A DNA stretch of 32,000 bases from Horticoccus luteus (GTDB lineage: Bacteria > Verrucomicrobiota > Verrucomicrobiia > Opitutales > Opitutaceae): contig NZ_CP080507.1 in assembly GCF_019464535.1 (NCBI RefSeq), positions 3,630,001 through 3,662,000 of the forward strand, in the 5' to 3' direction. The position numbers and the translations under genes are program-made. Shown piece after piece: positions 272 to 25,847 of this stretch. Below the pieces are notes generated by a model. It was not told the DNA's origin and did not search any database. It saw only the letters and a list, made by a program, of their open reading frames with translations. Numbering within the stretch: the stretch's first letter is position 1; each line of letters starts with the position of its first letter.

Positions 272-1117
272 TCACTTCTTCACGGGCGCAAATTCGATCG
301 GGATCAGCACGTCGAGTTCGACGAATTGACCGTCTTTGATCGCCGGAGCAAACAGCCAGCCCCGGAGCGCCTCCGCGGCCGCCTGTCCAAATTCCGGAGC
401 ACTCGCCTCCTGCACTTTCGCGTCCGTAACCACGCCTTCCCGGTCGACATGGCACAACACTTTGGCGGAGCCGGCCTCGCCCGAAGCGCGCAGCGATGCA
501 GGATAGATGGGCGCTTCCGCGTAAACCGGGACCAGATCGCGCGCTGGCGTGCGCTTCAACGTGAAGGCATCGCGCGTTTCCTTGGCCTTCTTGATCGCGT
601 CAGGTGTCATGGTCGAATTGATCACCTCGAACGCCCCCGCGAAAAAATGCACGTCCGGGCGGAGCTTCGATTTCTTCGCGTTCTTTCCCGCCACCTGAAT
701 CGCGAATGCGCCCGGCTTCGTCGGACTGAGGTTGTCCGGCAACGCCGCCACGCGGACGTATTTCGTCGTCCCATCCGTCTCCTTCACCTCGACCGCCACG
801 AAGCTGCGGGGAATCGCCCGGTCAGGCACGACCGTCCCCGTGATCAGCAACTGCCCTTCTTCCGCCGCTGCTTGGATCTTGTAGGGCTTCACCGTGAAAA
901 ACGCGTCGTGAAACGTGCTGGCGGGCCTGGTCATGAGCTTCGCCTTCGCGACCGCCGCCCGCGCCTTGCCGCCTTTCACTGCGACAATCGGCGTGTCATC
1001 CTGCTTCACGGCGACCACCGGGTTCGTCGCGAAACCTTCCTTCGCCACGACGATCTCCTGCGCCCGGCCGGCGTGGAGAGTAAGGAGAGAAAAGGAAAGG
1101 AGGAGCAGACGTTTCAT
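272..1117 (-). CDS. secreted protein with a TonB C-terminal (TonB_C) domain
   Basis: ATG at 1117 and TGA at 272. Signal-like N-terminus MKRLLLLSFSLLTLHAGRAQE. The C-terminal ~85 aa (LVPVYAEAPIYPASLRASGEAGSAKVLCHVDREGVVTDAKVQEASAPEFGQAAAEALRGWLFAPAIKDGQ) matches the TonB_C pattern P.YP..a...g..G.v.v...vd..G.v....v..ss....fd.aa..a....f.Pa...G. Confidence 0.7.
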   Translation of the reverse strand: MKRLLLLSFSLLTLHAGRAQEIVVAKEGFATNPVVAVKQDDTPIVAVKGGKARAAVAKAKLMTRPASTFHDAFFTVKPYKIQAAAEEGQLLITGTVVPDRAIPRSFVAVEVKETDGTTKYVRVAALPDNLSPTKPGAFAIQVAGKNAKKSKLRPDVHFFAGAFEVINSTMTPDAIKKAKETRDAFTLKRTPARDLVPVYAEAPIYPASLRASGEAGSAKVLCHVDREGVVTDAKVQEASAPEFGQAAAEALRGWLFAPAIKDGQFVELDVLIPIEFAPVKK

Positions 1118-2676: not shown

Positions 2677-2756
2677 CCCCCTCACGGGTGAGGTCGGGTT
2701 CCGGATGGCTCGTGACGGTGTTGGATGGCTCTGCATGCGTGTCCTCTCGGGTGAAT

Positions 2757-4775
2757 TTAATCTGTCACGGTCAGCGGCGCCGCGGGCTGCGTTTTCGTCG
2801 TTTCGGGCGCGAACCGCCAGCTCTTGTCCTCCACCCACGCACTGTGATCGAAATTGCCGATCCACTCGCGTTCATGCGCGCGGCGGAAGCGGATCAACGC
2901 CGCCACCGCCTCGCGGCCGCGATCCGGCGTCGACTCTGGATCGGAGAGCGTCAGCAACCGCGCCGCCTGCACGCTGAGCTGCGCCTGCGTCAATCCGTCG
3001 CGCAGGAACTGCACGCGTGCGACCGCCTCCCGGTCGCCTCGCGCCGCCTGCGCCGCCTCGTCCAGCAACGCCTCCGCCGGACCGAAGCACTCGTCGGGAA
3101 AAATCCGGTGCGGCACTTTCGCCCACGTGCGCCAGCGCATGGCTTCGCGATCTTCAAACGCGCTGAAGATCAGCGGACGGTTGTCCATCGTGTAACGCTC
3201 CCAGTAATCGAAATACGCCTGCACCTGCCGGGCCGCCGGACCAAAGCCGCCGTAGTATTCTGCGAGCAGTTCATCGACTGGAGCGTCCGGCTCCGTGTGC
3301 AGACGCATCAACAGGTAGAGGGTCGGCCCTTGCACCGCCCACTGGCCCGTGAGCGAATCGAAGTCCGTGGCAACGCAACCATGGCGCACGGCGTGCTGAA
3401 AATCATCGGCGAACTGATGCGCGAAAATGAAGGGCATGTCGTAGCCGTCGAGAAAGTAGTCGGGGCGGAAAAACAGCCGCGCGCCCGTGCGGCTCCAGCC
3501 GTCCCATTGCGCCTTATACCAGGCATGCTCATCGTCGAATCGCGGATACCACCCCGCCGACGGACTGAAAGCGATCAGGATGTGCGAATTGAGCTGTACG
3601 CCCGACGTCGGCGGCTGGAAATAATTGAAATACGCATAGCCGATCGCGGTGACGTCCGGATTTTCCTTTGCCGCGAGCTGCTGCACCGCCAGCACGAAAC
3701 GCGCATAGCGGTCCGTCACAAAACGCGCCCCGTGCATTTTGAATTTCGGCAGGTAATACTTGTCCTTGTCCGGCGGCGGCGGCCCGTCCCAGGCCCGGCA
3801 GGCGTCGCATTCGCACAGGCCGAGAATATCGTTGTCCACTGCGTTGATGAAGCTCGGCAGGGTCCCCGCCGCCGCTCCGCCGCGCTTCTTCCACTGGGCG
3901 ACAATTTCGCGGTGCAGACCGGGGTTCGAGACGCACATCGAGAAACGCGCCCCCGGCGTCGCCGGTCCGCGTTTGCCATTCACCAATTGAAACCACTCGG
4001 GATGCGTGGCGCCGTATTTTTGCCACCACGTCTTGAACTCATCGTGGCCGTAACTGATCCGATAGCTGCGCCCCAGCCGGTGCCGGCGGAGAAAAACCTG
4101 CTGTTCCTGCGCGTAAGCCTGCGTCGCCGCCGGCGTGAATCCGAGCTCGGGGTGGTCGAGATCCTTCGCGAAGTTGAGTCCCGGCCGCACGTGACGCTGA
4201 AAGAATCGCGGCGCCATGGTCACATCCATCCGACCAAACTCGATCCGCTCGGCGCGCGGCACATACGTGCCAAGTTCGCCCGGCCACAGCCAGCGCACGC
4301 CTTGGGTGCGCTCCAGCCATTCATAAACACCAAACAGCGTGCCGGCCGATGTGCTCAAATCGAGCGGATCACCCGGCGCATCGCGGCCCGCGATGATCAA
4401 ACCCGCCGCCGTGCTGCGCACCGTGAAAGTTTCCACCGCCAGTTTCCGACCTTCGATCGCCGCCGCTCGCGCCGCCGCCGTATCTCCCAGAAAAATCAGC
4501 CTCGCGGCGAGTCCGCGCGCTTGCGCTTCATCCACCACCGGCGGCCGGTGGCCGGTCGCTTTTTCCAGGTGATAGGCGAGCTCCTGCGCTGCGTAACGCA
4601 CCGCTTCCGGACATCCAGCAGCAGTGACGATCGTCACCGCTGCGGCGGGTGCTGCCTCCGGGCGGTCATCCATCCGCGCAAGAGCCATCGCGGCTTCTCC
4701 CGAACCGCCGCGCGCGGCGCCGACGATAGCCAGGAGCGCGAGCGCGGACAGAACCTTCATCAGCGGTGCGCGCAT
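2757..4775 (-). CDS. DUF4838-type putative glycoside hydrolase, paralog P1
   Basis: Long ORF with a signal peptide (MRAPLMKVLSALALLAIVGAARG). Shared family blocks: VRYAAQEL.YHLEKATG, GTLFGVYEWLE...VRWLWPGELGT, HPEWFQLVNGKRGP, MCVSNP, NAVDNDILGLCECDACRAWDGP, FIFAHQFADDF, EWIGNFDHSAWVED. The ATG at 4775 shares one base with the sulfatase TGA (TGATG). GTG at 4778 or 4790 are alternative starts. The family name rests on recognition only. Confidence 0.7.
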   Translation of the reverse strand: MRAPLMKVLSALALLAIVGAARGGSGEAAMALARMDDRPEAAPAAAVTIVTAAGCPEAVRYAAQELAYHLEKATGHRPPVVDEAQARGLAARLIFLGDTAAARAAAIEGRKLAVETFTVRSTAAGLIIAGRDAPGDPLDLSTSAGTLFGVYEWLERTQGVRWLWPGELGTYVPRAERIEFGRMDVTMAPRFFQRHVRPGLNFAKDLDHPELGFTPAATQAYAQEQQVFLRRHRLGRSYRISYGHDEFKTWWQKYGATHPEWFQLVNGKRGPATPGARFSMCVSNPGLHREIVAQWKKRGGAAAGTLPSFINAVDNDILGLCECDACRAWDGPPPPDKDKYYLPKFKMHGARFVTDRYARFVLAVQQLAAKENPDVTAIGYAYFNYFQPPTSGVQLNSHILIAFSPSAGWYPRFDDEHAWYKAQWDGWSRTGARLFFRPDYFLDGYDMPFIFAHQFADDFQHAVRHGCVATDFDSLTGQWAVQGPTLYLLMRLHTEPDAPVDELLAEYYGGFGPAARQVQAYFDYWERYTMDNRPLIFSAFEDREAMRWRTWAKVPHRIFPDECFGPAEALLDEAAQAARGDREAVARVQFLRDGLTQAQLSVQAARLLTLSDPESTPDRGREAVAALIRFRRAHEREWIGNFDHSAWVEDKSWRFAPETTKTQPAAPLTVTD

Positions 4776-6373
4776 CACGGATTTTCCCACGGATCCCTGG
4801 TCCGCCGCTGAAAGGCCGTGAGTTCAGCCATGAGCTGCTGCTTCACGGCCGCGTGACCGGGATCGTCGGTGAGGTTGTTCACCTCGTCCGGATCCTGCTC
4901 CAGATCGTAAAGCTCGTATTCGGGCCGATGCAGAAACGCGGCGACCGTGCGTTGGCCAAACATCCGCCGCTCGCTCTCGGCGCTCGGCAGCCACGTGGGC
5001 GTTTTCTCCTCCGTGTCCGGCCCACGCACCTGTTTCGGCGCCAGCACCGCGCTGATCCACGTCGACGACTCGACCAGATCCCGCGCGAGCGGAAACGTGA
5101 GCTCATGCGCGAGGTTGTGAATCAATTTGTAGCGCGGCGTCCGGATGACGCGCATCGGGTAATACATCGTGATTTGATGAAACGTGTGCGAAGCAAAGAC
5201 CCGGTCCCATCCCGCCAATGCGCCACCATCCAAGCCCGCGCGAAACGATCGGCCGTCGAACTGCTTCTCGTCGTAGGCCACGCCCGCGACGTCCAGCACC
5301 GTCGGCGTCAGGTCCGCCCACGAGACCATCGCCGACTGCAGCGCTCCCGGGTGTTGTCGGCCCGGTGCCCGCACCAGCAACGGCAGGCGCATCCCGGGTT
5401 CGTAGAGCGTCGTCTTCGAGCCAGGAAACGCCGGCCCGTTGTCCGAAAGGTACAGAATCAACGTGTTCTCGTACTTCCCCGCGGCCTTCAGCACGCCGAT
5501 CAGTTTGCCGACGCCCTGGTCCAGGCGCGCAATCGACTGGTAATACTGGGCCAGTTCAAGGCGCGTGGCTTCGTTGTCGGGCAAATACGACGGCACGACC
5601 ACGTCCTCCGGACGAAACGCGACGGGCGTCACGCCCGGATAACCCTGCGGCCGATTGCCGAAGCTGTTGGGATTCGGATACGTCTTGAAAGTCGGCTTCC
5701 CGTCCGGACGAAACGCGTTCGAGCGATGCGGATCGTCGGTCGCGTAATAGAGAAAGAACGGCCGGTCGTCCTTCGCCTCGATCACGCCGCGCGACATTTC
5801 CGCCATCTCCACCGGGCTGCGCCCGATCGTCTTCGGATCGTTCGCGTGCCCTTCCGAGAGCACGGTTTGAAACGCGAACACCTTCTCTGGCGCGATGTGA
5901 TACTTCCCGATGCGCGCCGTGCGGTAACCGGCTTCCGCCAGGATCACCGACAAACTGCGGACACTGTCGAAGCTCTGAAAGTGATGCTCGTCGTGCTGCA
6001 AGCCATACATGCCGTTATGGTGACTCTGCAGCCCGCTGAGAATCGTCGCGCGCGACGGACTGCAACTGGCCGTCGTGCAAAACGCCGCGGTGAAGCGCGT
6101 GCCGTCCGCCGCGAGTGCGTCGAGATTCGGCGTGCGCACCACCGGATTGCCGTAGCATCCCAGCCCATCGGTGCCGTGATCGTCCGCCACGATCATCACG
6201 ATGTTCGGGCGAGCGGGCGCCGCGGCCGTCGCCGCGGGTTCCGCCGCCGCACCGCAGCCTGCCAGCAGCGCCGCTCCGAGCACCGCCCCCCGCCACCCTA
6301 GGGCGACGGCCGGTCTATTTTGCGGTCGCGGCAATATACGCGCTGAGTTGTTCGACATGATGGTTGAAGACAT
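4775..6373 (-). CDS. formylglycine-dependent sulfatase, N-sulfoglucosamine sulfohydrolase (SGSH/sulfamidase)-like, probable lipoprotein
   Basis: NIVMIVADDHG...CSPSRATILSG (C-x-P-x-R at 6050..6064), followed by LQSHHNGMYGLQHDEHHFQSFDSVRSL and DDRPFFLYYATDDPHR. These closely resemble the SGSH-type blocks I recall. Lipobox LLAG|C at 6254..6256. The start is uncertain: TTG 6382, ATG 6373, ATG 6358 or TTG 6334, and all of them overlap the upstream gene's 3-prime end. Confidence 0.88.
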   Translation of the reverse strand: MSSTIMSNNSARILPRPQNRPAVALGWRGAVLGAALLAGCGAAAEPAATAAAPARPNIVMIVADDHGTDGLGCYGNPVVRTPNLDALAADGTRFTAAFCTTASCSPSRATILSGLQSHHNGMYGLQHDEHHFQSFDSVRSLSVILAEAGYRTARIGKYHIAPEKVFAFQTVLSEGHANDPKTIGRSPVEMAEMSRGVIEAKDDRPFFLYYATDDPHRSNAFRPDGKPTFKTYPNPNSFGNRPQGYPGVTPVAFRPEDVVVPSYLPDNEATRLELAQYYQSIARLDQGVGKLIGVLKAAGKYENTLILYLSDNGPAFPGSKTTLYEPGMRLPLLVRAPGRQHPGALQSAMVSWADLTPTVLDVAGVAYDEKQFDGRSFRAGLDGGALAGWDRVFASHTFHQITMYYPMRVIRTPRYKLIHNLAHELTFPLARDLVESSTWISAVLAPKQVRGPDTEEKTPTWLPSAESERRMFGQRTVAAFLHRPEYELYDLEQDPDEVNNLTDDPGHAAVKQQLMAELTAFQRRTRDPWENP

Positions 6374-7904
6374 TGCTGCCAATGTAGCGGAAGCCCTTCT
6401 TGAAATTCGGCTGGCCCACCAATTTTGAGCCGTCGTGCGTCGTGATCCAGCGCCCCTGGTCGTCGAGCGCCGCGATGATCCGTTGCACGTCCGGCGCCAA
6501 CTCCTCCGCCGTCGCTTCCTGGCCGGCTACGCGGGCGACCGCGATCAGTTTGCCCGCTTCCGTGAACGTCTGGCCGTCGACCACTTTGGCGGCGCCCGGT
6601 TGATCGATGGCCGCAAACTCCGCTGCGAGTTCATTGATGCTCGACGGTTGTTTCCACCCGTAGTGCTTTGGCAGGTCTTTGTCGCTGTAGGTCAGGTCGT
6701 AGTAGCCGGGAGCGTTCGACGAGCCGCTCACGCCCGGTTTGCGGTTCATGTAGAGCGGCCGGTTGGTCTCGAGTTCGCGGTAGCGCGGCATGCGGCCGTC
6801 CGGCAGGAGGCACGTTTGCAGATAGGCAATCGCGCGCGGCAACGGCGCCAGATACTTCCGGTCCCCGGTGACCCGATAGATCTTCATCAAGGTCTTCACG
6901 GCGTCTTCCGACTCCAGGCCGCATACGGCCGGGGGCTCAAACTTCCGCGCCCACGTGGGCTCCATGTTGAAATTGTATTGCTGGCACCACGCCGGTTGCG
7001 GCTCGGGCATTTGCGCCAAAATCAAAAAGTCTCCCAACCGCGCGAGCGCCTGCTTGTAGCGCTCGTCGTGGTAGGTCTCGTAGGCAAGCAGCAGCGCATC
7101 CGAGACCGTGCCCACCAAGCCGTCGTTCAACGTGTAGTAGGTGTGATACGCCTCGTGCGGCCAAAGGCGCGGCCACTCCTTCGGGTAGTGCGCCTTGATG
7201 ATGGGCTTGTTCGGCGCCGGCTCCTTCCAACCTTGCGGAAATCCACCGTTGGGAAACTGCGCCTGCAACAGGCTGTTCAACGCGAACAGGGTCACCTCGT
7301 GGATCTTCTCGTTCTTGAAGTCCAGCGCCTGGTCCAGCCGCACCATGAATTGGATCGCGGCCTGCGTTTGATCGTCGTCGAGCGACGAGTAGTTCATCCC
7401 ATGGCCCCGGCCGTTCCGATAGTCGCCGCTGCGGTCGCCCTTCGGGTTGAAGTCGATCGTTTGCCGCCATCCGCCCGACTTCAACTGACCATAGACCAAT
7501 GCCTGGCCAGTCTCCGTCGCCGCCTCCAGATAGAACGGGTCGTGCGTCGCGGCGTAAGCCTCCAAGTAGGCGCGCCCGACCGCCGGAGTGCCCGGCGGCT
7601 CCACCCAAACCTGATCACGCGTGCCCACGCCTTCACCCCAGCGCTCGCTCAAGTCCGGGGTGTAGAAATACGCGTAGCCGCCGTGCGAGGCGACTTGCGT
7701 GCGATAGAACGTCGCCGCGCGCTTGAGCGCCGCCGTCGCTTCGCTGCGCAAATCCCGCGGCGCCTCGGCCGCCGACAAGGCGGCCGGCAACACCGCGGCC
7801 AGACCCATTCCCACTAACGCCGCTGCTCGCCACCGGCGCGCGGTCGGCACGCTGTCGTGCGCTTCTTTTCCGTCATTCGTTTCGTGTTTCATCATAAAAG
7901 TCAT
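6315..7904 (-). CDS. PL10-like pectate lyase / alpha-alpha toroid polysaccharide lyase
   Basis: The track ORF runs to 8465, but that part overlaps P2 out of frame. The sensible start is the ATG at 7904 (MTFMMKHE...RRWRAAALVGMGLAAVLPAALSAAEA, signal-like), which shares one base with the P2 TGA. The blocks SLDDDQTQAAIQFM, QFPNGGFPQGW, YTLNDGLVGTVSDALLLAY and WCQQYNFNMEPTWARKFEPPAVCGLESEDAVKTLM resemble the Pec_lyase (PL10) consensus as I remember it. Confidence 0.6.
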   Translation of the reverse strand: MTFMMKHETNDGKEAHDSVPTARRWRAAALVGMGLAAVLPAALSAAEAPRDLRSEATAALKRAATFYRTQVASHGGYAYFYTPDLSERWGEGVGTRDQVWVEPPGTPAVGRAYLEAYAATHDPFYLEAATETGQALVYGQLKSGGWRQTIDFNPKGDRSGDYRNGRGHGMNYSSLDDDQTQAAIQFMVRLDQALDFKNEKIHEVTLFALNSLLQAQFPNGGFPQGWKEPAPNKPIIKAHYPKEWPRLWPHEAYHTYYTLNDGLVGTVSDALLLAYETYHDERYKQALARLGDFLILAQMPEPQPAWCQQYNFNMEPTWARKFEPPAVCGLESEDAVKTLMKIYRVTGDRKYLAPLPRAIAYLQTCLLPDGRMPRYRELETNRPLYMNRKPGVSGSSNAPGYYDLTYSDKDLPKHYGWKQPSSINELAAEFAAIDQPGAAKVVDGQTFTEAGKLIAVARVAGQEATAEELAPDVQRIIAALDDQGRWITTHDGSKLVGQPNFKKGFRYIGSNVFNHHVEQLSAYIAATAK

Positions 7905-9886
7905 CAGTTCGATTGGTTGCTCTTCGCGGCCGGCCACACCCAACTCGCATCCTCGATCCACGCGGAGTGATTGAAGTTGCCGATCCATTCGCGCTCGTGC
8001 GCGTGGCGAAACGCCGCCAGCTCGGCCAATGCCGCAGCGCCGCGTTCCGGCGTCGCGTGCGGATCCGCGAGCGTGAGCAATCCCGCCACCCGTGAGCAAA
8101 GTTTCGCCTGCACCAGCCCCAGCCTTAAAAATTCCACGCGCTGCGCCGCTTCCGCGTCGTCCTTCACTGCCGCCGCGGCCGCCGCGAGCAATCTTTCCGC
8201 CGGCGTGAAGGAGGCCGCGGGAAATACCTCGTGCGCCACCTTCGCCCACGAGCGCCAACGCGAAGCCTTCATGTCGTCGAACACGGCACTCGTGTGCTCG
8301 CGCTGCGTCACCACATACGCTTCCCAATAGTTGAAATAAGCCCGCACCTCCGCCGCCGCCGCGCCAAACGCCCCGTAATACTCCTCCAGCAGGCGGTCCG
8401 CATCTTCGTCCGGTCGGGTCTGCAGCCGCATCAGCAAGTAGATGTTCGGCCCCTGCGTGCTCCACTGTCCCGTGAGGGCATCGTAGTCCGTCGCGACCAT
8501 TCCTGTGCTCACCTGGAACTTGAATTCGTCGGCGAACTGATGCGCATACACGTAAGGCATGTTATACCCGTCGAGACAGTAGTTGCCGCGCGAAAACAGC
8601 TTCGCGCCCGTGCGCGCCCAGCCCTGCCATTGACGGCGAAACCATTCGTTCTCCTCCGGCGAGCGCGGATACCAGCCGGACGACGGATACGATCCGACCA
8701 GAATATGGTCGTTCAACGTGATCGCCGCGGACGGAAAATAATAATAATTGAAGTAGTTATAGACGACGAGTGTGACGTCCGGGTCGGTCTTGCGCGCCTC
8801 CGCCTGCACCGCCAGCCAGAACTTCGCGTAGCGATCCGTCACGCAATGCGAACCCATCATTTTCGACGTGCGGGCGTAGTAATCGAGAAAGTCATCAGGC
8901 TGCGGTCCGTCGAGCGCTCGGCAATTATCGCACTCGCACAGGCCCATGATGCCGTTCTCGACGGCGTTGAGATAGTGCGACGCGGCGGAGCCATCCTTCG
9001 CTCTGCGCTCCCGCCACAATTCGACGATCTTGTGCTGAAACTCCGGATTCGAAACACACATGGAGTAACTCCGGCCCGGAGCCGTCGGCCCGCGCTTGCC
9101 GTTCACCAACTGAAACCACTCCGGGTGCTCGGCTCCGTATTTCTCCCACCAATCGGTGAAGGCATGCCGATAAGTCAGGTTCTTCGCGCGCCCCATCCGG
9201 TGCCGGCGCAGATACACGGCCTGCGCGTGCGCATAATCTTCCAACGCGCCGGGCGAAAAGCCCATCGTCGGGTGTTCGCTCTTGAACGTCAGGCCGCCAC
9301 GCACTTGCCGTTGCACGAAGTGCGGCGCGCGGATCGCGTCGGGCACATCGGCAACCACGGTGGCATGAATCGGCACGAACGTGCCCAGTTCGCCCGGCCA
9401 GAGCCAGCGCACCTGCACGACCTCCTCCAGCCACTCGTAAACGCCAAACAAAGTGCCCGCCGCTACGCTCACATCGAGCGCCTCGCCGCCTTCGTCGGAG
9501 CCCGCGATCACAAACCCGTCGGCCACTGCGCGGAAGGCAAATGCTTCGCGCGCCAGTTGCTGCACGTCAATTCCCGCGCCGCGCGCCGCCTGCGTGTCGC
9601 CCACGTAGAGCCGTGCGCCTCCCGCCGGCATTTCCCGGCCTTCGCGGACCACGGTTAACGTGACACCTGTCGCGCGCCGGATATGATACACCAGCTCCTC
9701 GGCGGCGTAGCGGCTCACTTCATTCGGTTGCGCCGGGAGCACCACGAGTGCCGGCGGTTCTCCCGCTTTCACCACCGTCAGCGGCCGCCCAAAGGCCGCC
9801 CCGCACCACGCCAGCGCCACGAGCCCCATAAGGGCCCAGCGCGACGTCCGCGAAAACCAGCCGGCCCTCTTGGCGCCCGTGCTCAC
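7904..9886 (-). CDS. DUF4838-type putative glycoside hydrolase, paralog P2
   Basis: The GTG start at 9886 overlaps the P3 TGA (GTGA). Signal peptide ...WALMGLVALAWCGAAFG. Same family blocks: GTLFGVYEWLEEVVQVRWLWPGELGT, HPEWFQLVNGKRGP, MCVSNP, NAVENGIMGLCECDNCRALDGP, YVYAHQFADEF, EWIGNFNHSAWIED. Confidence 0.7.
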   Translation of the reverse strand: MSTGAKRAGWFSRTSRWALMGLVALAWCGAAFGRPLTVVKAGEPPALVVLPAQPNEVSRYAAEELVYHIRRATGVTLTVVREGREMPAGGARLYVGDTQAARGAGIDVQQLAREAFAFRAVADGFVIAGSDEGGEALDVSVAAGTLFGVYEWLEEVVQVRWLWPGELGTFVPIHATVVADVPDAIRAPHFVQRQVRGGLTFKSEHPTMGFSPGALEDYAHAQAVYLRRHRMGRAKNLTYRHAFTDWWEKYGAEHPEWFQLVNGKRGPTAPGRSYSMCVSNPEFQHKIVELWRERRAKDGSAASHYLNAVENGIMGLCECDNCRALDGPQPDDFLDYYARTSKMMGSHCVTDRYAKFWLAVQAEARKTDPDVTLVVYNYFNYYYFPSAAITLNDHILVGSYPSSGWYPRSPEENEWFRRQWQGWARTGAKLFSRGNYCLDGYNMPYVYAHQFADEFKFQVSTGMVATDYDALTGQWSTQGPNIYLLMRLQTRPDEDADRLLEEYYGAFGAAAAEVRAYFNYWEAYVVTQREHTSAVFDDMKASRWRSWAKVAHEVFPAASFTPAERLLAAAAAAVKDDAEAAQRVEFLRLGLVQAKLCSRVAGLLTLADPHATPERGAAALAELAAFRHAHEREWIGNFNHSAWIEDASWVWPAAKSNQSN

Positions 9887-14330: not shown

Positions 14331-16612
14331 AATTTACGGCCCGTGGCCGGCTGCGCCTCGACGCGCTCGATCTCACCCTGGCCGCGGTGCCAGTTCAGAA
14401 ACGTGTAATGCGCCGTCGGCGCTTTCACTTCCTCGCGCAAACGCACGTGGGCCGCATCGGCCGACGCCAGCTCCATGCCACAGGACAAATTCAAATCGCC
14501 GCCCACGAGGTAACGCCCCTCCGCCGTCAACGGCGTGAGTCGCACGACGCGCGCCGCATGCGCCGGCAGCAAGAGGCTGAGGCGGTCCTCGCGGCTAAAC
14601 GTGCCGAGATACCGCTGCGTCTTGTATTCGAACGCCGCGAACACCTCGCCCGGCGGCAGATGCGGCACATCGCCGATTTTGAACGCCAGAGTCTTCTCGC
14701 CCGCGCCATTCCAATTGCACAGCGAAACCATCACCCACGGCGGCAACACGCCGTCGTGTTGAAACGCACTCGAAAAATATTCCGGCAAATACTCGGCCCA
14801 GGGATAGAAGCGTTGCGCCACCGGCGCGTAGGTTGGCAGGGCGGCGTGGTAGAGCGCGTAGCGATCCGGCGGCACCTCATCGAGTTTGTCCGAGACCTGC
14901 ACCACCCCGCCGCCGAGGAAACGATACACCACCGTTGAAAATGCTTCTTCGTCCGTGAAGTTGCCCATCGACAAATGCAGCTTGGTCTTTCGCCACGGCG
15001 TCGTTCGGCGGCGCAGTTGCAGTGCGTCCTGGTCGCTCGTCCACAACGCTTCGTCGTAAATCGCCCGCGCGAACGTCTGCCGCATGCGCACGGGATAACG
15101 CGTCGCGTAAGCGTCGCCGGCCCGCGGGTCCCAATGCCCGCGCACGTCCGACCCGGAACGATTGATGTCCACCAAACCCGCGTTGGCCTCAAAGAGTCCG
15201 CCCCAGACGCCAATCACCGTTTTTTCGCCCGCCGCCTTCCGCAGCACCTCGAGGCCGTGGCGATACGCCTGCGCCCGGTTCTTTGACCGATCATGAAAGA
15301 CCGCGTTTTCGTTGATCACGACGGCGCGAAGGAAATCGAACTTCAGGTAGCGATAACCCCAGCCGGTCAGTTTGTGACACAGCTCGGTCAAAAACGTCTC
15401 CGCCGAAGGCGCCGTCGGATCGAGGATGTAGCAATGCCCCATGTCCGTCTTGAACTCGATCGGCTGACCCGCGCGATCCAGCAACGGGAGATCAGGGTAT
15501 TTTTTCAGCACCTCCGCGTTCGACTCGATGATAAAGGGACACGTCCAGATCCCCGGCGCGAGCCCCGCGGCCGTGATCTCATCCGCCATCGCTTTCATGC
15601 CGTCCGGAAACCGCGCCGGATCCGCATTCCAGTCACCGAAGTTGTCGTCCCAGTTGTAATCGATCAGGAAGGTGTCGAACGAAAGCGGGCGCGCCCGCAT
15701 CGCGCGCAAATCCGTTCGCAAATCGTCCGCGACGATTTCCGGACCGTAAAAATACCATGTGCAAAACACATTGCGGAGTGGCGAGCTGCGACCGCCATAA
15801 GCCTGACGAATCCGGGCCACATGCTCGGCCAGCAGTTCTGCGCACGACTTCCCCGATTGCAGGTGCAGCCAATGCGTCTCACGCGTCTCGCCCGGCGCCA
15901 CGCGCACATTGTCAAACTCCGCCGTTGCGGTCAGGTGCGCCAACGCGTCGGCCGCCGAAGTGAGTGCAAGCTCGATGTCGTTCAGGTGCCGCGTCTGGCC
16001 ATCGAAGCCAATGAAGAGATCCGCCTGCGCTTTCCCGTCGGGCATGATCACCAACGCCGGATCCGAGTGAAAGAGCGGCCCCGCCATCGGCGACGCTTCC
16101 ACGGGGTCGTCAGTCGGCTTGCCGCCCACCACGGCCTTCGCACTGTCGGTGGCGGCATCGCGCGAGGCGTCGTCCCACACCGACGGTCGAAACGGCCCGG
16201 GCACGTCGTTCTTCTGTCGCGCGAGACGATAGACGGTCCACGCCTTCACGGTCGTGCCGGCCACGTTCACACTGTCGGCACCGACCGCCCGCAACAAGGT
16301 CACGCGCCCCAACTCGATCGCGGTCGCGCGCCGATTCGTGACCGCAACTTTCAACCGGTATCCGCCAGGTTCAGCCTCAAGGGTCCGCTGCAGTTGCAGG
16401 CCTGCCACTTCCCCGCGCCCTTGGGCGTCAAAAACTACGTCCGGCAGTATTTCGCCGCCTCCGAGCACCGGTGACGGTGTCTCGAAAGTCACGCGGGTGC
16501 CGCCCGCAAAATTCAGCGTCACGAGCTCCGGCGCCGCCGCCGCCTTTACGAGAGCAAACGCCAACGCGAGCACCGCCGGCAACATCGCGCGCCACGCCGT
16601 CGACGAACTCAC
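14327..16612 (-). CDS. GH36/GH27-clan (melibiase-type) alpha-galactosidase-like glycoside hydrolase
   Basis: FCTWYFYGPEI, FDTFLIDYNWDDNFGDW, FPDGMKAMADEITAAGLAPGIWTCPF and GWGYRYLKFDFL (K-x-D nucleophile-type motif) are typical of clan GH-D. The start is uncertain: GTG 16678 (37-nt overlap with the PL1 gene), GTG 16612 (gives MSSSTAWRAMLPAVLALAFALVKAAAA) or ATG 16585. Confidence 0.6.
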   Translation of the reverse strand: MSSSTAWRAMLPAVLALAFALVKAAAAPELVTLNFAGGTRVTFETPSPVLGGGEILPDVVFDAQGRGEVAGLQLQRTLEAEPGGYRLKVAVTNRRATAIELGRVTLLRAVGADSVNVAGTTVKAWTVYRLARQKNDVPGPFRPSVWDDASRDAATDSAKAVVGGKPTDDPVEASPMAGPLFHSDPALVIMPDGKAQADLFIGFDGQTRHLNDIELALTSAADALAHLTATAEFDNVRVAPGETRETHWLHLQSGKSCAELLAEHVARIRQAYGGRSSPLRNVFCTWYFYGPEIVADDLRTDLRAMRARPLSFDTFLIDYNWDDNFGDWNADPARFPDGMKAMADEITAAGLAPGIWTCPFIIESNAEVLKKYPDLPLLDRAGQPIEFKTDMGHCYILDPTAPSAETFLTELCHKLTGWGYRYLKFDFLRAVVINENAVFHDRSKNRAQAYRHGLEVLRKAAGEKTVIGVWGGLFEANAGLVDINRSGSDVRGHWDPRAGDAYATRYPVRMRQTFARAIYDEALWTSDQDALQLRRRTTPWRKTKLHLSMGNFTDEEAFSTVVYRFLGGGVVQVSDKLDEVPPDRYALYHAALPTYAPVAQRFYPWAEYLPEYFSSAFQHDGVLPPWVMVSLCNWNGAGEKTLAFKIGDVPHLPPGEVFAAFEYKTQRYLGTFSREDRLSLLLPAHAARVVRLTPLTAEGRYLVGGDLNLSCGMELASADAAHVRLREEVKAPTAHYTFLNWHRGQGEIERVEAQPATGRKL

Positions 16613-16641
16613 AAAAGGGAGATGCCACGGGCGGAGGCGTT

Positions 16642-17970
16642 TCAATACTCGACCTCCTGACGGTAGGCGGCGAGCCACGCGTCCACTTCGGCCGAAGTTT
16701 CCGGCACCACTAATTTCCGACGCGTAGGCGCGTAGTCCGGATAACCGCCGACCTCATCCTGCGAATCGATCACCCGCCCCTTGCGCGCGAGGTAGTCGTT
16801 GACGATGCGTTGATCGACGCGATCGCGGTCTTTCGGGCGCGCCCCGGCGTTCTTCAACACGAACGCCTCTGTCAACGCCACCGGCAGCGGGGTGAAACCC
16901 TTCGGTTCAAGCATCGGTTGATCGACCACGGTCACTTCGGGCACGATCTGGCTGCGTTCGGTCGCCACCGCTCCGTCCCAGAGCAGTTCGCCATCTTTAC
17001 CGTAAACGCGGCTGTCGCGCTGATACAATTTGGCGGTGCCCATCACCGCATCCTTCGAACACGTAAACATCTTCAACCCCGCGTGGGTCGACGCACCCAT
17101 CCGATAGAGGTTGGCGATCGCGGTCATTTGCGACGGGAGCATCGGATCGGAAATCACTTTATATTCGTCGGGCACCCAGGCGAAGTGGATCGCACCGTTG
17201 CCCGGATCATAGATCACGTTGTTGGCCATGAACACCGTGGTGTTGGGCTTTAGATACGGATTCCGATTGTAGTCATGCGCGTAAAGATTCCCGACAATCG
17301 CCACGTCATGCGTGAAGTCATGGATCAACGTCCCCTTCGAATGAGGTCCCTTCGGGTGCGTGGAATTATTCAACGCCTCCGCGATGATGCAGTTGCGAAT
17401 CGTCACGAAACTCGACGTGCCATTTTTGACGCGCGGACCCGAGACCGAGAGATTTTCGTCGATCGACCACGACGACGAGCAGTGATCGTAGAGGACGTTC
17501 TTCACCTTCGGCCCCTGCGTGGTCATCGAGTCCGGCTGCCAGCCCGCCTTCTTCAAGTCGCCGCCGTCGCCCACCCGCACGTGCAGGTGCCGCACGATCA
17601 CGTCGTGCGTCGATACCGTCAGGCTGCCGCGGACGATCGTGATGCCGGGTGACGGCGCCGTCTCTCCCGCAATGGTGACATCGCCATTTTCCAAGGTGAC
17701 CTCGTCGCCTTGCCAATCGATCACGCCACCGACTTCAAACACGATGATGCGCCGGCCCTCGGCCGCGAGCGCCGCCTTGAACGATCCGTCACCCTCGTGG
17801 GCCAGGGTCGTGACTTTGATCACGCGCCCGCCCCGCCCGCCGGGCGTATCGGCGCCGAAGCCGCTGAAGGCCATCGCGCTTCCGCCGGGCACCGTGGCCG
17901 GTTGCTGAGTCGCCGCGTGCAGAGGCAGCACCAGCCCGGCCGCGAGGGAGAAGAGGAGGAACGTTTTCAT
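16642..17970 (-). CDS. PL1-family pectate lyase (right-handed beta-helix)
   Basis: The ATG at 17970 overlaps the P4 stop (ATGA). Signal peptide MKTFLLFSLAAGLVLPLHA. FGADTPGGRGGRVIKVTTLAHEGDGSFKAALAAEGRRIIVFEVGGVI...VTIAGETAPSPGITIVRG...VIVRHLHVR and YDHCSSSWSIDENLS match the PL1 pattern G.GG.GG.v..VT.L.d.G.GSlR.A....pR.IvF.vsG.I...tIAGqTAPg.GI. Confidence 0.8.
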   Translation of the reverse strand: MKTFLLFSLAAGLVLPLHAATQQPATVPGGSAMAFSGFGADTPGGRGGRVIKVTTLAHEGDGSFKAALAAEGRRIIVFEVGGVIDWQGDEVTLENGDVTIAGETAPSPGITIVRGSLTVSTHDVIVRHLHVRVGDGGDLKKAGWQPDSMTTQGPKVKNVLYDHCSSSWSIDENLSVSGPRVKNGTSSFVTIRNCIIAEALNNSTHPKGPHSKGTLIHDFTHDVAIVGNLYAHDYNRNPYLKPNTTVFMANNVIYDPGNGAIHFAWVPDEYKVISDPMLPSQMTAIANLYRMGASTHAGLKMFTCSKDAVMGTAKLYQRDSRVYGKDGELLWDGAVATERSQIVPEVTVVDQPMLEPKGFTPLPVALTEAFVLKNAGARPKDRDRVDQRIVNDYLARKGRVIDSQDEVGGYPDYAPTRRKLVVPETSAEVDAWLAAYRQEVEY

Positions 17971-20063
17971 TTTGTCGATTGGTTCACCGCGATCCAAAAC
18001 GGCTGCTCGTTGCCGGTGCGCACCTCGCGCACGGACTCTTCCTCGCGCAGCCGTTCGGCGCGCATCCGCGCCGGCTCGGTGCCGAGCAGGCGCTCAAACC
18101 CGGCGTTGTCGGCATACGCGTTTTCAAGATAGAACAGGAGTTCCCAGTGCATATTGAGATCGAGACGATGCTGCCGGCGGAAATCATATAAGGCCTGGGT
18201 CGTCTGCTTTTTCTCCTCCGCTGAAGCCGTCGAGCCCACGCCATTCGCCTTCGTGGCGCGATAAGTGACCCGGCTGTGCTCGTTGGCCAGCACCAGCGTC
18301 TGCACCCGCGCGCGTTCACTGGCGGTCAGGTCCCGGCTGAGTGCTTTCTGCAGCAGCGCATCCGTCTGGTCGAAATCCTCTTCCCGATACATCAAGCCCG
18401 CGAGGTTCGCCATTTTGTTGCGCAATAGCTTCATGCCCGGCGTGAGGTCGGTGATGCGGTCGAGGTTGGGCATCACCCGATCGTTCCAGATCTGCTGCCA
18501 ATATTGCTGGTAGGCTTTTACGTCGTCGCGAGCGTTACCGTAAGTCCCGCAATATTCGTTTTCCCAATCCGCGAAAGAGCGCTCGGGCCGGTAAAAACCA
18601 CGCGCCATGATATAATTGGTCATGCCTGAAATCGGCCAGAAGCCCCAGCACGTATCATAATCCGTGCCCTTCATGTTGAGGTAGTGGTTGACAAGCTGAT
18701 AGTGGCCAAACATGTGCTGCTCAAAACCGAGCGGCAGACCCGTGTCCTGACACAGCGCATTGGTCCGCATATAAACATCCGTGGCATTGGCATTCTTCCA
18801 CCCGCGGACGTAGGCCTCCATCTCCGGCAGGGTTTCGGACAGATTCGGCAGCAGGAACGTAATCACGCCATCGTCCAGGCGCTCCCGCCGGGGCGGCTGA
18901 TTGTAGCGGCTGTAGGCATAGAACACCACGCGGGCCTTAGGATCGTAATGCGCGCGGGCTTCGCGGAGCACCGCGTTGGTGAAATGCACGTAGCGGTCGG
19001 TCAACATCCGGTCCTCGACGTCGAGATTTTCCTCGCCCGGCAGCAGCACATCGAGCGCCTGGCAGTCCGGACAACGGCAGAAATTGCGACTGTCGTTTTC
19101 GCAGGCATTGATGACCAGCCCGCCGCCCGCCGCGTAATGATCCTTCACGACCTGTTTGACCAACGCCGGATTGCTCACGCACATCTTCACCCGATCGGCC
19201 AGTTTCTCTGACGCCGGCCCGCGCTTGCCGTTTTTGCCGAGCGCAAAATATTCCGGGTGCGTCGCGCCATACTTGGCCCACCACTTCCGAAAGGCGTGGC
19301 CGTAGGTGAAATCGAGGCTGCTGCCCATGCGCATCCGCTTTTGCCAGACACGCTCATCCAACTGACGCGCCTCAAATTCCTTCGCGGAAAACTGCATGTC
19401 CTTCGGCACTTCGCCTTCCTTTAACGCGCGATCGCGGAGGTCTTCTTTATACGCGGTGCGCATGTGGCGTTGCACCAGTTGCGGCACCCACTGCCCCTCG
19501 CTCACCGGGAGCACCAGCACCTTTTGCGGCGTGTAGGTAATGCCGGCGAGACCCGGTTCGATCCAGTGCACCCCGAGGGCGTTCTCCAGAAATTCATAAA
19601 CGGCATACAGCGTGCCCGCCTGGGTCTTGCTCGCCATGGCGATGTCGCGCGCCGTGCCGCCGCCGCGAAGGGCCTTCTTGTTCACGGCATCCCGCCCATA
19701 CAAGAAAATGCCTTTCGGTGTGACGACCCAGCGCCCTTCCTCGACCTCGAGCGATGTCTTCACGTTGGGCGGGAGGAGCCCCACGCCGATCGGAAACTGT
19801 CCCGCTTGGGGGCGCTTCACCACGGGCACGTCGCAACCCGTGATCAACTTCAAGTGGAACTGCAGTTCCTCCACCGCGTAGTCGATCACCGCCGTTTTTT
19901 TGGCCGGCACCACGATGACGCAGCTCGACGGGTTGATCTTGATCGTGGGGTCTTCACTTTTCGCCCGCAGCGCGGTGGTTCCAAGCGAGATGGCTGCCAG
20001 CAAGCAGCACAGGAGTTTATTTAGAGAATTCACAGATATTGTATTGGGGTTGCCCGGTCGCAC
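17967..20063 (-). CDS. DUF4838-type putative glycoside hydrolase, divergent paralog P4
   Basis: GTG start at 20063, or GTG at 20033 giving (M)NSLNKLLCCLLAAISLGTTALRA. It keeps the family skeleton (GTLYAVYEFLENALGVHWIEPG, HPEYFALGKNGKRGP, MCVSNP, NACENDSRNFCRCPDCQALD) but differs at most other positions. The C-terminal EWIGNFNH..W.ED block is absent. GC content is visibly lower than in its neighbours. Confidence 0.65.
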   Translation of the reverse strand: MRPGNPNTISVNSLNKLLCCLLAAISLGTTALRAKSEDPTIKINPSSCVIVVPAKKTAVIDYAVEELQFHLKLITGCDVPVVKRPQAGQFPIGVGLLPPNVKTSLEVEEGRWVVTPKGIFLYGRDAVNKKALRGGGTARDIAMASKTQAGTLYAVYEFLENALGVHWIEPGLAGITYTPQKVLVLPVSEGQWVPQLVQRHMRTAYKEDLRDRALKEGEVPKDMQFSAKEFEARQLDERVWQKRMRMGSSLDFTYGHAFRKWWAKYGATHPEYFALGKNGKRGPASEKLADRVKMCVSNPALVKQVVKDHYAAGGGLVINACENDSRNFCRCPDCQALDVLLPGEENLDVEDRMLTDRYVHFTNAVLREARAHYDPKARVVFYAYSRYNQPPRRERLDDGVITFLLPNLSETLPEMEAYVRGWKNANATDVYMRTNALCQDTGLPLGFEQHMFGHYQLVNHYLNMKGTDYDTCWGFWPISGMTNYIMARGFYRPERSFADWENEYCGTYGNARDDVKAYQQYWQQIWNDRVMPNLDRITDLTPGMKLLRNKMANLAGLMYREEDFDQTDALLQKALSRDLTASERARVQTLVLANEHSRVTYRATKANGVGSTASAEEKKQTTQALYDFRRQHRLDLNMHWELLFYLENAYADNAGFERLLGTEPARMRAERLREEESVREVRTGNEQPFWIAVNQSTK

Positions 20064-20067
20064 AATG

Positions 20068-20085
20068 ACGGCCGTCGCCGGCCGT
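20068..20085. other. perfect 7-bp stem / 4-nt loop palindrome in the P5-P4 intergenic gap
   Basis: acggccg at 20068..20074, tcgc at 20075..20078, cggccgt at 20079..20085. It lies 4 nt upstream (in mRNA sense) of the GTG at 20063. Its function is unknown. Confidence 0.3.
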
Positions 20086-20096
20086 GATTACGTCGG

Positions 20097-22151
20097 TCAG
20101 GGATATAATTCCGGCGCTTGTTTCGTTTCGGTCCCAAGCGTCCAGCTCAAGTCCTCGACCCATGCCTCGTGGTTGAAATTTGCGATGCCGCTGAATTCAT
20201 GCGCGCGACGGAATGCCAGCAGTTCCGCCAACGCCTCCTTGCCTTCCGGCGCGGGTCCATCCGGCCGGGCCAACGACAGCAAGCCGGCCACCCGCGAACT
20301 GAGCTTCGCGTGCACTAAACCAGCCTGCAAAAACGCCACGCGTTCCGCCGCCGTGCGGTCGTCGGCGCAGGCCGCCGCCGCTTTCGCGAGCATCGCTTCG
20401 CCCGCGGCAAAGCACTCCGTCGGATAAACCGCGTGCGCCGCTTTCGCCCAAGTGCGCCACCGCGAGGCGTGCAGGCTATCGAACGCCTCGTTGATCTGCG
20501 CGCGATGCCCCATCGTATAATTTTCCCAATAGTCGAAATACGCCTTCACCTCGGTCGCCGCTGGACCGAACGCCGCGTAATATTCGCTCAAGAGTTCGTC
20601 GGGATCCGCATCCGGCCGCGTATGCAGACGCATCAAGAGGTAGAGGTCCGGCCCTTGCGTCGCCCACTGGCCTGTCAACGAGTCGAAATCTGTCGCCACC
20701 ATGCCGTTTCTCACCTCCGACTGGAAGTCGTCGGCGAACTGGTGGGCGAAGATGAACGGCATGCAGTAGCCGTCCAAAAAGTAGTTCGTGCGCGAGAAGA
20801 GCCGCGCGCCTGTGTCCGCCCAACCGCGCCATTGCCGCTTGAACCAAGCGTGCTCCTCCGGGCTGCGGGGATACCACCCGCCAGAGGGACAGTAACCGAG
20901 CAGGATGTGATCGTTTAACTTTATTCCCGAAGTCGGGGCCTGAAAGTAGTTGAAATACACATAGCCGACCACGGTCGCATCCGGATCGTGCTTCGCCGCG
21001 AGCTGCTGCACCGCCAGCCAGAAATGGGCGTAGCGGTCGGAAACGAAACGCGCCCCAAACACCTTCGATTTGGGCGAGTAGAATTTCATCGCATCAGCGG
21101 GCACCGGCCCGTCCCACGCCCGGCACCCTTCGCATTCGCACAGACCGAGAATGTCGTTCTCGACCGCATTGATATAATGCGGATTCGTCCCCGTGGGCTT
21201 CGTGCGCTCCGCCTGCCATAGGTCCACAATTTTCTGCTGCAACCCCGGCTCCGACACGCTCATCGAAAAGCGCCCGCCGGGTTTCATCGGCCCGCGCTTT
21301 CCATTCACCAATTGGAACCATTCGGGATGGTCCTCGCCGTATTTCTCCCACCAGTCGGTGAACGCGTGATGATAAGTGATCACCGTCCCGCGCCCCATGC
21401 GGCACCGGCGGAGAAAGACCGATTGCTCATGCGCATACTTTTCCGCTGCCGCCGGCGTAAAGCCGAGCGCCGGATGGTCGCTGGTGAATCCCAGGCCCGG
21501 ACGCACGAGGCGCTGAAAAAAGCGCGGGGCGACAGTTTCGTCCCAGTCGTGCGCCACAACTTCGTGCCGGACCGGCACGAACGTGCCGAGCTCTCCCGGC
21601 CACAGCCAACGCACGCCGAGTTCGCGTTCCAGCCATTCATACACGCCAAACATGGTCCCTCCGGGCGTGTTCATATTGAGCGGATCGCCGGGCGGAATTT
21701 CCGGCGGATTGTAAAGCGCATCGGACACCGCATGCTCTCCGGCGCGCGTGCCCGGCCCGCCCCGACGAAGATCGCCTCCTACGATGTAGACATCGGGACC
21801 GATCGTTCGAAGCACGAATGTTTCCGGCGCCAGGGCTGCGGCATCGATCCCCGCGTTTTCAGCGGCGCGCGTCGCTCCGAGGAAAAAATGGGATCCGTCG
21901 CCGGGCTGGCCGTCGGCTTCGGTCATGATCGGCAGCGTCACACCCGAGGCTTTCGCAATATGCTCCACCAACTCTTGGGCGGCATAGCGCACGACCGGCG
22001 AAGCATCGCCCGGCACCACCACCGTCGCGCGCGCCTGACCCGCCGCGACAATCGGCCGCTCAGACCCGCAGGCGATCTGGACGGCGAAGAGCGCGCCGGC
22101 CAGCACCAAGGCCCAGCCGCGGCGCGGATGGAGTTCGAAAGAACCTTTCAT
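20097..22151 (-). CDS. DUF4838-type putative glycoside hydrolase, paralog P5
   Basis: The ATG at 22151 lies 6 nt after the receptor stop. Signal peptide MKGSFELHPRRGWALVLAGALFAVQIA. Family blocks: GTMFGVYEWLERELGVRWLWPGELGT, HPEWFQLVNGKRGP, NAVENDILGLCECEGCRAWDGP, FIFAHQFADDF, ANFNHEAWVED. It has MSVSEP where the others have MCVSNP. Confidence 0.7.
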   Translation of the reverse strand: MKGSFELHPRRGWALVLAGALFAVQIACGSERPIVAAGQARATVVVPGDASPVVRYAAQELVEHIAKASGVTLPIMTEADGQPGDGSHFFLGATRAAENAGIDAAALAPETFVLRTIGPDVYIVGGDLRRGGPGTRAGEHAVSDALYNPPEIPPGDPLNMNTPGGTMFGVYEWLERELGVRWLWPGELGTFVPVRHEVVAHDWDETVAPRFFQRLVRPGLGFTSDHPALGFTPAAAEKYAHEQSVFLRRCRMGRGTVITYHHAFTDWWEKYGEDHPEWFQLVNGKRGPMKPGGRFSMSVSEPGLQQKIVDLWQAERTKPTGTNPHYINAVENDILGLCECEGCRAWDGPVPADAMKFYSPKSKVFGARFVSDRYAHFWLAVQQLAAKHDPDATVVGYVYFNYFQAPTSGIKLNDHILLGYCPSGGWYPRSPEEHAWFKRQWRGWADTGARLFSRTNYFLDGYCMPFIFAHQFADDFQSEVRNGMVATDFDSLTGQWATQGPDLYLLMRLHTRPDADPDELLSEYYAAFGPAATEVKAYFDYWENYTMGHRAQINEAFDSLHASRWRTWAKAAHAVYPTECFAAGEAMLAKAAAACADDRTAAERVAFLQAGLVHAKLSSRVAGLLSLARPDGPAPEGKEALAELLAFRRAHEFSGIANFNHEAWVEDLSWTLGTETKQAPELYP

Positions 22152-25751: not shown

Positions 25752-25767
25752 GGCTGATTTTTTGAAA

Positions 25768-25776
25768 GGGGGGGGG
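25768..25776. repeat. G9 (C9 on the coding strand) homopolymer in the receptor leader
   Basis: Direct count: g at 25768..25776, followed by a T6 run at 25758..25763. The minus strand reads CCCCCCCCC TTT C AAAAAA TCAGCC ATG. Confidence 0.9.
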
Positions 25777-25847
25777 CGCGAAGGAAGGGAGGAAACCAAG
25801 AATGGCGATCTAAACTTGCACGGGCGGCTGCGGCGGCGCAGGCCGGG

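Follow-up and report, generated by a model that had tools for sequence, protein, structure and literature searches.

The DNA examined here is a 32,000-nucleotide stretch of the genome of Horticoccus luteus (Verrucomicrobiota, Opitutaceae), called the window below, which has a G+C content of 64% and carries five paralogous genes of the DUF4838 family (PF16126), P1 to P5. Their products are best read as exported, catalytically competent PF16126 glycoside hydrolases (GH) of diverged specificity, which would act on an acidic, sulfated, pectin-like glycan by a GH185-like mechanism; the probability of this reading is put at roughly 0.55. The source of the DNA was evident from P3, which was 100% identical to the H. 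luteus protein P0001, encoded on a 4.32-Mb contig. The five genes, given as maximal open reading frames (ORFs), are the following.

20097..22151, minus strand: P5, DUF4838 (PF16126) paralog of 684 amino acids (aa); Pfam expect value (E) 5.9e-18
17967..20063, minus strand: P4, the most divergent DUF4838 paralog, maximal ORF of 698 aa; Pfam E 1.3e-19
9883..11934, minus strand: P3, DUF4838 paralog, maximal ORF of 683 aa; Pfam E 1.2e-28
7904..9886, minus strand: P2, DUF4838 paralog of 660 aa; Pfam E 5.1e-22
2757..4790, minus strand: P1, DUF4838 paralog, likely start 4775; Pfam E 3.4e-23

All five ORFs were present and intact at the coordinates given in the initial annotation of this DNA, all on the minus strand, and the inner starts proposed there for P1 and P3 are plausible (the NCBI protein for P3 has 670 aa and starts at 11895). 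The products could be aligned over their full length (alignment A1), with pairwise identities between 28 and 65%: 64.6% for P1/P3, 62.9% for P3/P5, 57.8% for P1/P5, 52-56% for P2 and 28-32% for P4 against the others. Even the weakest relationship was far beyond chance (P4 against P3, BLASTP E 1e-61 over 648 columns). The best 187-column window of P1 and P3 was 79.1% identical, in agreement with the 79% earlier counted by hand in a block of that length. The motif blocks that had been listed as common to all copies were recovered in P1, P2, P3 and P5; P4 lacks the SAGWYPR loop, which follows beta-6, and otherwise has diverged versions of the motifs, e.g. NACENDSRNFCRCPDC. By a heuristic criterion each protein begins with a charged stretch followed by a hydrophobic segment of the signal-peptide type. 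This is in keeping with the signal peptides assigned to all five before, and export is predicted from these sequences. The leader of P3 (11800-11934, minus strand) reads …TTQRRERRASPIGGWLRAALAIGVGAAGVGSS… and resembles a twin-arginine (Tat) rather than a Sec signal, unlike the leaders of P1, P2, P4 and P5, which are ordinary-looking.

Family membership, conserved centre and predicted fold

All five proteins scored above the gathering threshold of PF16126 (65.5-100.6 bits against a cut-off of 26.6), which bears out the assignment to DUF4838. The match was full-length in four paralogs and covered profile positions 27-199 only in P4. PF16126 was the sole match in the Pfam scan of P1-P5, where the GH67 and GH115 catalytic domains and GH20 were not hit, and no NCBIfam model matched them. 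PF16126 is the catalytic domain of the CAZy families GH163 and GH185 (PMC10570127). BT1035 of Bacteroides thetaiotaomicron, the founding member of GH163, is an endo-beta-N-acetylglucosaminidase that cuts the N-acetylglucosamine (GlcNAc)-beta1,2-mannose linkage in complex N-glycans, and the GH185 enzyme Sp_0475 of Streptococcus pneumoniae is a 6-sulfo-beta-GlcNAcase of the exo type with a retaining, substrate-assisted mechanism (PMC10570127). The earlier statement that this architecture has no established activity can therefore not be maintained. Its authors would have given up the idea of sub-functionalised enzymes for a well-characterised family with known specificity, and the coverage of GH163 and GH185 by PF16126 goes part of the way to this. 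A literature search on BT1035 and PF16126 returned no further characterised members, and most text matches to 'GH163' were really GH16_3. A Polaribacter DUF4838 protein carries the GH163 label (PMC9870897), so that dbCAN may give P1-P5 that label as well.

In GH163, one Cys precedes alpha-3 and a C-x-C-x-x-C motif follows beta-4, whereas GH185 is without the first Cys (PMC11776370). The complete four-Cys pattern (MCVSNP and CxCxxC) is present in P1-P4; P5, with Ser at the first position, is the only copy to match the GH185 state. The paralogs have the PF16126 catalytic domain and predicted export in common with BT1035. The F5/8 type C module of the latter is absent from P1-P5, and BT1035 belongs to an N-glycan locus, whereas P1-P5 lie in a locus with lyases, a sulfatase and GH28. 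P1-P5 resemble GH185 in having the PF16126 domain and, after beta-4, C-x-C-x-x-C, in the conserved Asp of that loop with a conserved His and Tyr nearby, in lacking the GH20 D-E signature and in having GH115 as the closest solved fold. A link to sulfated substrates is also common to both, here through a sulfatase neighbour that recurs across phyla. The members of the GH185 cluster (sequence similarity network cluster 3) are cytoplasmic and have no signal peptide (PMC10570127), whereas P1-P5 have signal-like N-termini.

An AlphaFold model of P3 was built on 67 diverse relatives (alignment A3), with a predicted local distance difference test (pLDDT) of 92.6 and a predicted template-modelling score (pTM) of 0.90. 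It consists of three parts: an alpha/beta domain (residues 56-177), a region (about 196-510) in which strands and helices alternate as a (beta/alpha)8 barrel, and a helical C-terminal domain (516-676). Such a barrel, distantly related to GH20, is what characterises the catalytic domain of PF16126. In the model the N-terminal domain is of the GH20b/GH67N type and the C-terminal domain a helical bundle. In a Foldseek search of the PDB, GH115 came first (E 4e-14, template-modelling (TM) score 0.45-0.49), followed by GH67, GH20 (among them Bt4394, a sulfoglycosidase), GH84 and GH138, with E from 4e-14 to 5e-8; with TM below 0.5 the similarity to GH67 and GH115 is at the level of the fold only. The sequence profile of the P3 family matched a single PDB domain, the N-terminal domain of the GH67 enzyme AguA (E 6.8e-5), and a search with the P3 sequence by itself found nothing meaningful. 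No solved DUF4838 structure was detectable by sequence in the PDB. Model, Foldseek and profile match together uphold the GH20/GH67-like N-terminal domain and barrel that had been proposed from the sequence.

The alpha-glucuronidases of GH115 and GH67 and the alpha-galacturonidase of GH138 have the same three-domain layout (N-terminal alpha/beta, barrel, helical) and would suit a uronic-acid-rich locus such as that of P1-P5, but are only about 12% identical to them in sequence, and these families are not known to possess the Cys cluster. The beta-N-acetylhexosaminidases of GH20 and GH84 (Foldseek E 4e-10 to 1e-7) share the N-terminal GH20b-type domain and a barrel whose beta-4 loop bears catalytic residues. 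The H-x-G-G-D-E pattern of GH20, absent in all five, and the adjacent D-D pair of GH84 are replaced in P1-P5 by an E-N-D type. Some GH20 enzymes possess a Cys/Zn site at the equivalent place (PMC11776370).

Over the relatives in A3, and in P3 numbering, the near-invariant barrel residues are R248, R250, H261, C297, S299, E330, N331, D332, C337, C339, C342, D346, R372, Y373, Y398, W443, R453, N455, D489, Y503 and R507; R453 and D346 are 100%, D332, H261, Y398 and N455 99% and D489 96% conserved. In the P3 model C297 is located just ahead of helix 301-313, and beta-4 (324-327) is followed by E-N-D (330-332) and then by C337, C339 and C342. The E-N-D thus stands at the C-terminal end of beta-4, where GH20-type barrels have their catalytic residues, and E330-N331-D332 would supply the catalytic acid/base. 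The Cys cluster brackets the loop after beta-4 and probably binds a structural Zn. The 35 residues that separate the first Cys from the acid would match the distance between C106 and E141 in the Thermus GH42 enzyme, which is a lead only. The putative acid/base of GH163 lies in the same loop as C-x-C-x-x-C (PMC11776370). Sp_0475 has D309, Q174, H227 and Y436 as key residues and GH115 as its nearest solved fold (PMC10570127), and the conserved Q212, H261, D332 or D346 and Y398 of the P3 barrel are candidates for their counterparts. Beta-7 carries R453-P-N455 and no carboxylate. Enzymes of clan GH-A have their nucleophile on beta-7.

That P1-P5 might be binding proteins only had been left as an alternative by the initial annotation. 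It is unlikely because acidic residues are conserved (E330, D332, D346, D487 and D489); P2, which is without D332, may be an exception. C-terminal sugar-binding modules in relatives at 40-49% identity were also counted for a glycosidase. Such a module, a GH2_N-type domain or CBM4_9/CBM9, was seen in P0125, P0130, P0138, P0140, P0149 and Lentisphaerae matches (37-49% identity); the Horticoccus copies have none.

The ranking of solved structures points to another activity. P1-P5 could be uronidases of the alpha-glucuronidase or alpha-galacturonidase type, like GH115, GH67 and GH138, which would remove uronic acids, or attack the rhamnogalacturonan-like products of lyases and GH28, by a non-acetamido mechanism with two or three of the carboxylates E330, D332, D487 and D489. 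This is a possible but clearly less probable reading than that of GH185-like enzymes. It draws on the first place of GH115 and GH67 and the match to GH138 in the Foldseek search, on AguA as the only sequence-level PDB match, and on eight near-invariant barrel Arg that would suit anionic sugars. Against it speak the activity of both characterised PF16126 enzymes, which are beta-GlcNAc-ases, and the failure of the Pfam GH67 and GH115 catalytic domains to match.

Ancestry and divergence of the five copies

In a neighbour-joining tree (100 bootstraps) the five copies fell into four old ortholog groups, with bootstraps of 100 for P4, 95 for P2, 100 for P5 and 87 for P1+P3; the last clade splits into a P1 subclade (100) and a P3 subclade (99). 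Every paralog is closer to orthologs from other organisms (genera or metagenomes) than to its operon neighbours. The copies are old ortholog groups with different active-centre signatures and no recent duplicates. The view that they were retained as diverged enzymes with different jobs gains from these outside orthologs and from substitutions at near-invariant sites that are proper to the P1, P2 and P5 clades.

The P1 clade shows the paired change E330D + N455D, common to P0082 and P0090. The corresponding residues of P1 are D319 in the beta-4 loop and D444 on beta-7, and N455D puts a carboxylate at the position of the clan GH-A nucleophile; the paired change may reflect a different catalytic solution in that copy. 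In the P5 clade C297S (MSVSEP) occurs in three of the four sequences, P5 together with P0104 and P0093, and P0113 keeps the Cys. The differences of P4, which is about 30% identical to the other copies, are broader than theirs. A sixth DUF4838 copy of H. luteus, P0296, belongs to the P4 clade (50% identical to P4) and is encoded on the same 4.32-Mb contig outside the window.

P2 has Gly at the 99%-conserved D332 (ENG for END), a change found in P2 alone among the 67 sequences of A3 and kept in its orthologs of Nibricoccus, Oleiharenicola and Opitutus ER46. It is conceivable, at a low probability, that P2 at least, and possibly other copies, is a catalytically dead paralog that binds glycans or forms a partner subunit for the neighbouring P3-type enzyme. 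The Gly in P2 and all its orthologs would fit this, as would the ENG-type gene that shares an operon with an END-type gene in four of the four Opitutaceae genomes examined, and the 4-nucleotide overlap between the stop of P3 and the start of P2. On the other hand, the P2 clade retains all other near-invariant barrel residues, including E330, D346, H261, Y398, R453, N455 and D489, which speaks for selection still acting on the active site. Moreover, the acid/base role of D332 is only putative, and in the other four paralogs a carboxylate occupies each position of this kind. That the five copies are redundant, functionally undiverged tandem duplicates of recent date, kept for gene dosage, is suggested by one architecture in one cluster, yet is most improbable in view of identities of only 28-65%, well-supported clades with closer orthologs in other genera and metagenomes than in their own genome, which contradict it in the tree, three clades with their own substitutions at near-invariant sites and a paired arrangement kept in other Opitutaceae.

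The gene cluster and its presumed substrate

The paralogs lie in a region where the minus strand carries all the real genes. In descending coordinates the order of the cluster is TonB-dependent receptor, P5, P4, PelZ-like lyase, GH36-like enzyme, GH31, P3, P2, PL10-like lyase (PL, polysaccharide lyase), sulfatase, P1, PhoD-like esterase and TonB-C-domain protein. The genes other than P1-P5, with GH28 upstream of them, are listed here.

27583..29268, minus strand: GH28 rhamnogalacturonidase; NCBIfam BT4146 equivalog, 646 bits against a cut-off of 500
22158..25862, minus strand: TonB-dependent receptor, first gene of the cluster; Pfam Plug domain; position matched in the syntenic loci L005 and L004
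16642..17997, minus strand: PelZ-like (PL1-type) pectate lyase; NCBIfam pec_ly_PelZ E 3.9e-112, below the equivalog cut-off
14327..16678, minus strand: GH36-like barrel enzyme of the alpha-galactosidase type; Pfam Melibiase and GH31 barrel; PDB 1zy9, E 5.7e-30
11898..14330, minus strand: GH31 glycosidase of the YicI alpha-xylosidase type; three Pfam GH31 domains; PDB YicI, E 1.3e-62
6315..7904, minus strand: remote PL10-like lyase; Pfam Pec_lyase E 2.5e-16
4775..6382, minus strand: formylglycine-type sulfatase, SGSH-like (S1_8-type); Pfam Sulfatase and SGSH_C
1138..2865, minus strand: PhoD-like phosphoesterase, likely start 2736; Pfam PhoD E 7e-23
272..1117, minus strand: TonB C-terminal domain protein, last gene of the cluster; Pfam TonB_C E 1.3e-15

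With plausible starts, these 13 co-directional genes (25751 to 272) are separated by gaps of -59 to +63 bp; the gap between receptor and P5 is 6 bp. A promoter and terminator scan of the cluster gave no internal signal above shuffled expectation. The single operon of the initial annotation is borne out as far as the tight spacing of the 13 genes is concerned, from which their co-transcription is inferred. GH28 is probably a separate transcript, because a plus-strand gene lies between it and the cluster.

Lyases and a sulfatase do stand beside the paralogs, as had been noted. The PelZ-like enzyme matched pectate lyase 9buj in the PDB (E 1.7e-23), and 1zy9, matched by the GH36-like enzyme, is an alpha-galactosidase; alpha-galactosidases are the closest to this enzyme, as YicI is to the GH31. 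The AlphaFold model of the PL10-like lyase (pLDDT 90.5) is an (alpha/alpha) toroid that has an additional domain at the C-terminus, and its top Foldseek matches were the PL10 pectate lyases 1r76 and 1gxm. The best solved relative of the sulfatase was human N-sulphoglucosamine sulphohydrolase (4mhx, E 4.1e-93; next 5.5e-40). Such closeness to human lysosomal sulfamidase (SGSH), with the next solved structure more than 50 orders weaker, is unexpected in a soil bacterium. Characterised S1_8 enzymes desulfate N-sulfated glucosamine (GlcNS) (PMC10154612). A heparan-like (glycosaminoglycan) substrate, raised by this sulfatase and by a weak C5-epimerase C-terminal hit on the lyase, was set aside because the lyase model fits PL10 best and GH28 and the PL1-like lyase indicate galacturonan. 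In Oleiharenicola lentus (locus L002, 17520-20477) a single protein of 985 aa combines the SGSH-like sulfatase with the PhoD-like esterase, whereas in the window they are separate genes on either side of P1; the fusion suggests that both act on one substrate.

The block GH31 - DUF4838 - DUF4838 - PL10-like - (DUF4838) - SGSH-like sulfatase - PhoD was found in Nibricoccus aquaticus, Oleiharenicola lentus and Opitutus sp. ER46, whose loci further contain a receptor, an AraC regulator and a PF07470 hydrolase of the GH88/GH105 type. The order receptor-P5-P4-lyase-GH36-like-GH31-P3 is seen again on a metagenome contig, and the P3-P2 pair with PL10-like lyase and sulfatase recurs in other Opitutaceae. 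Neighbours within 8 kb were counted at 78 loci of species-representative genomes. A PL10-like gene, the most constant partner of the DUF4838 pair, was present at 15 loci, a sulfatase at 13, GH31 at 7, a PhoD-like gene at 6 and GH28 at 4 (in other Verrucomicrobiota); two or more DUF4838 genes occurred at 15. In a second census, of 111 neighbouring ORFs at 37 mostly non-Opitutaceae loci, 86 families were found. The sulfatase family was the joint most frequent (5 hits, equal to N_methyl), with SGSH_C on 4 ORFs; GH28, GH31, Pec_lyase and rhamnosidase had 2 hits each, and GH20, GH18 and GH33 were not among the 25 most frequent families.

A locus search made with alignment A1 showed the family to be spread over Verrucomicrobiota, Armatimonadota, Planctomycetota, Hydrogenedentota, Latescibacterota, Lentisphaerae and Bacteroidota, and a profile of the five paralogs retrieved 14,266 clusters (50% identity) at E<=1e-3 and 2,236 at E<=1e-30. 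Single-copy homologs, 50-55% identical to P1, were also seen in Mesorhizobium spp. and Pararhizobium mangrovi (L027, L028, L029 and L032). They lie outside polysaccharide loci, beside regulators, acyltransferase_3, oxidoreductase and enolase-superfamily genes, and the Mesorhizobium gene context gave no information on substrate. They may have been acquired horizontally from Verrucomicrobiota, or else a plant-associated substrate may be shared.

In the pathway that we propose, the TonB-dependent receptor would import fragments of an acidic, sulfated, pectin-like heteropolysaccharide, of which the PL1-like and PL10-like lyases would cleave the uronic-acid backbone. Charged substituents would be stripped off by the PhoD-like esterase and the SGSH-like sulfatase, and different sugars or linkages by GH31, by the GH36-like enzyme and by the five DUF4838 enzymes. 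Hydrolysis by the DUF4838 enzymes would be retaining, with participation of the substrate's own 2-acetamido group as in GH185. This substrate-assisted mechanism is the most economical because the beta-7 position holds Asn and not a carboxylate.

Several observations weigh against GH185-like action of P1-P5. The Opitutaceae clade is without a characterised member and the glycosidase activity of P1-P5 is predicted; the pairing of P3 residues with Q174, H227, D309 and Y436 of Sp_0475 is presumed. The GH20 signature is missing, and the best structural matches are with the inverting alpha-glucuronidases GH115 and GH67, not with hexosaminidases. The acid/base could also be D346, which is fully invariant and stands right behind the Cys motif, and with P2 lacking D332 at least one copy may not use the proposed mechanism. 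Finally, the SGSH-like sulfatase is the only element of the locus that indicates hexosamine; GH28 and the PL1-like and PL10-like lyases indicate galacturonan.

It is on this last point that the uronidase alternative draws again. The locus and its relatives are rich in galacturonan enzymes, GH28 is adjacent in the four other Verrucomicrobiota loci, and the 37-locus census yielded rhamnosidase, GH28 and Pec_lyase, with GH20, GH18 and GH33 outside the top 25 of the 86 families. The sulfatase, being of the glucosamine-sulfamidase type, points the other way. In sum, family membership and the missing beta-7 carboxylate favour GH185-like substrate-assisted action on an acetamido sugar. For a uronidase speak the structural neighbours and a gene context oriented towards galacturonan. 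A further, tentative proposal is that the Opitutaceae-centred clade (P1/P3, P2, P5 and P4 types; more than 2,000 50%-identity clusters at E<=1e-30) represents a new glycosidase specificity, possibly a new CAZy family, directed to a sulfated galacturonan-containing polysaccharide rather than to GlcNAc. The 'ENG' lineage of P2 would then be a naturally acid/base-less variant that draws on a group of the anionic substrate for catalysis or needs its END-type neighbour.

Multi-paralog polysaccharide loci are normal in Verrucomicrobiota, and nothing is overturned by these results, since the DUF4838 family was already known as enzymatic. It is, however, a very large glycosidase superfamily of which only two members have been characterised, both from host-associated bacteria. 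The present locus offers five naturally diverged copies in clear ortholog groups, a cultured host and conserved partners (PL10-like lyase, SGSH-like sulfatase, GH31 and PhoD-like esterase). This makes it a practical place to begin the search for new specificities and the identification of the sulfated acidic polysaccharide on which Opitutaceae of soil and fresh water feed.

Other features of the window

26008-27483, plus strand: DUF455 (ferritin-like) gene, between GH28 and the TonB-dependent receptor
29503-32000, plus strand: large secreted protein, continuing past the right end of the window

The DUF455 gene marks the upstream boundary of the cluster, and its divergent arrangement recurs in the metagenome locus L005 (1416-2684). 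An Rfam scan of the window found no RNA family. Two long ORFs on the minus strand (26092-27387 and 29515-31815) and the many that the plus strand shows within the genes were rejected as genes; they had no family hits and are by-products of the 64% G+C. The ORF at 29515-31815, probably spurious, mirrors the gene of the large secreted protein. The latter has its start near 29580 (MKSTRLALLGFAAALL...) and contains tandem immunoglobulin-like repeats (…TISTQPASKAVFAGSSVTFSVVATGTPAPTYQWQKDG…), after which its N-terminal module of about 340 aa reappears.

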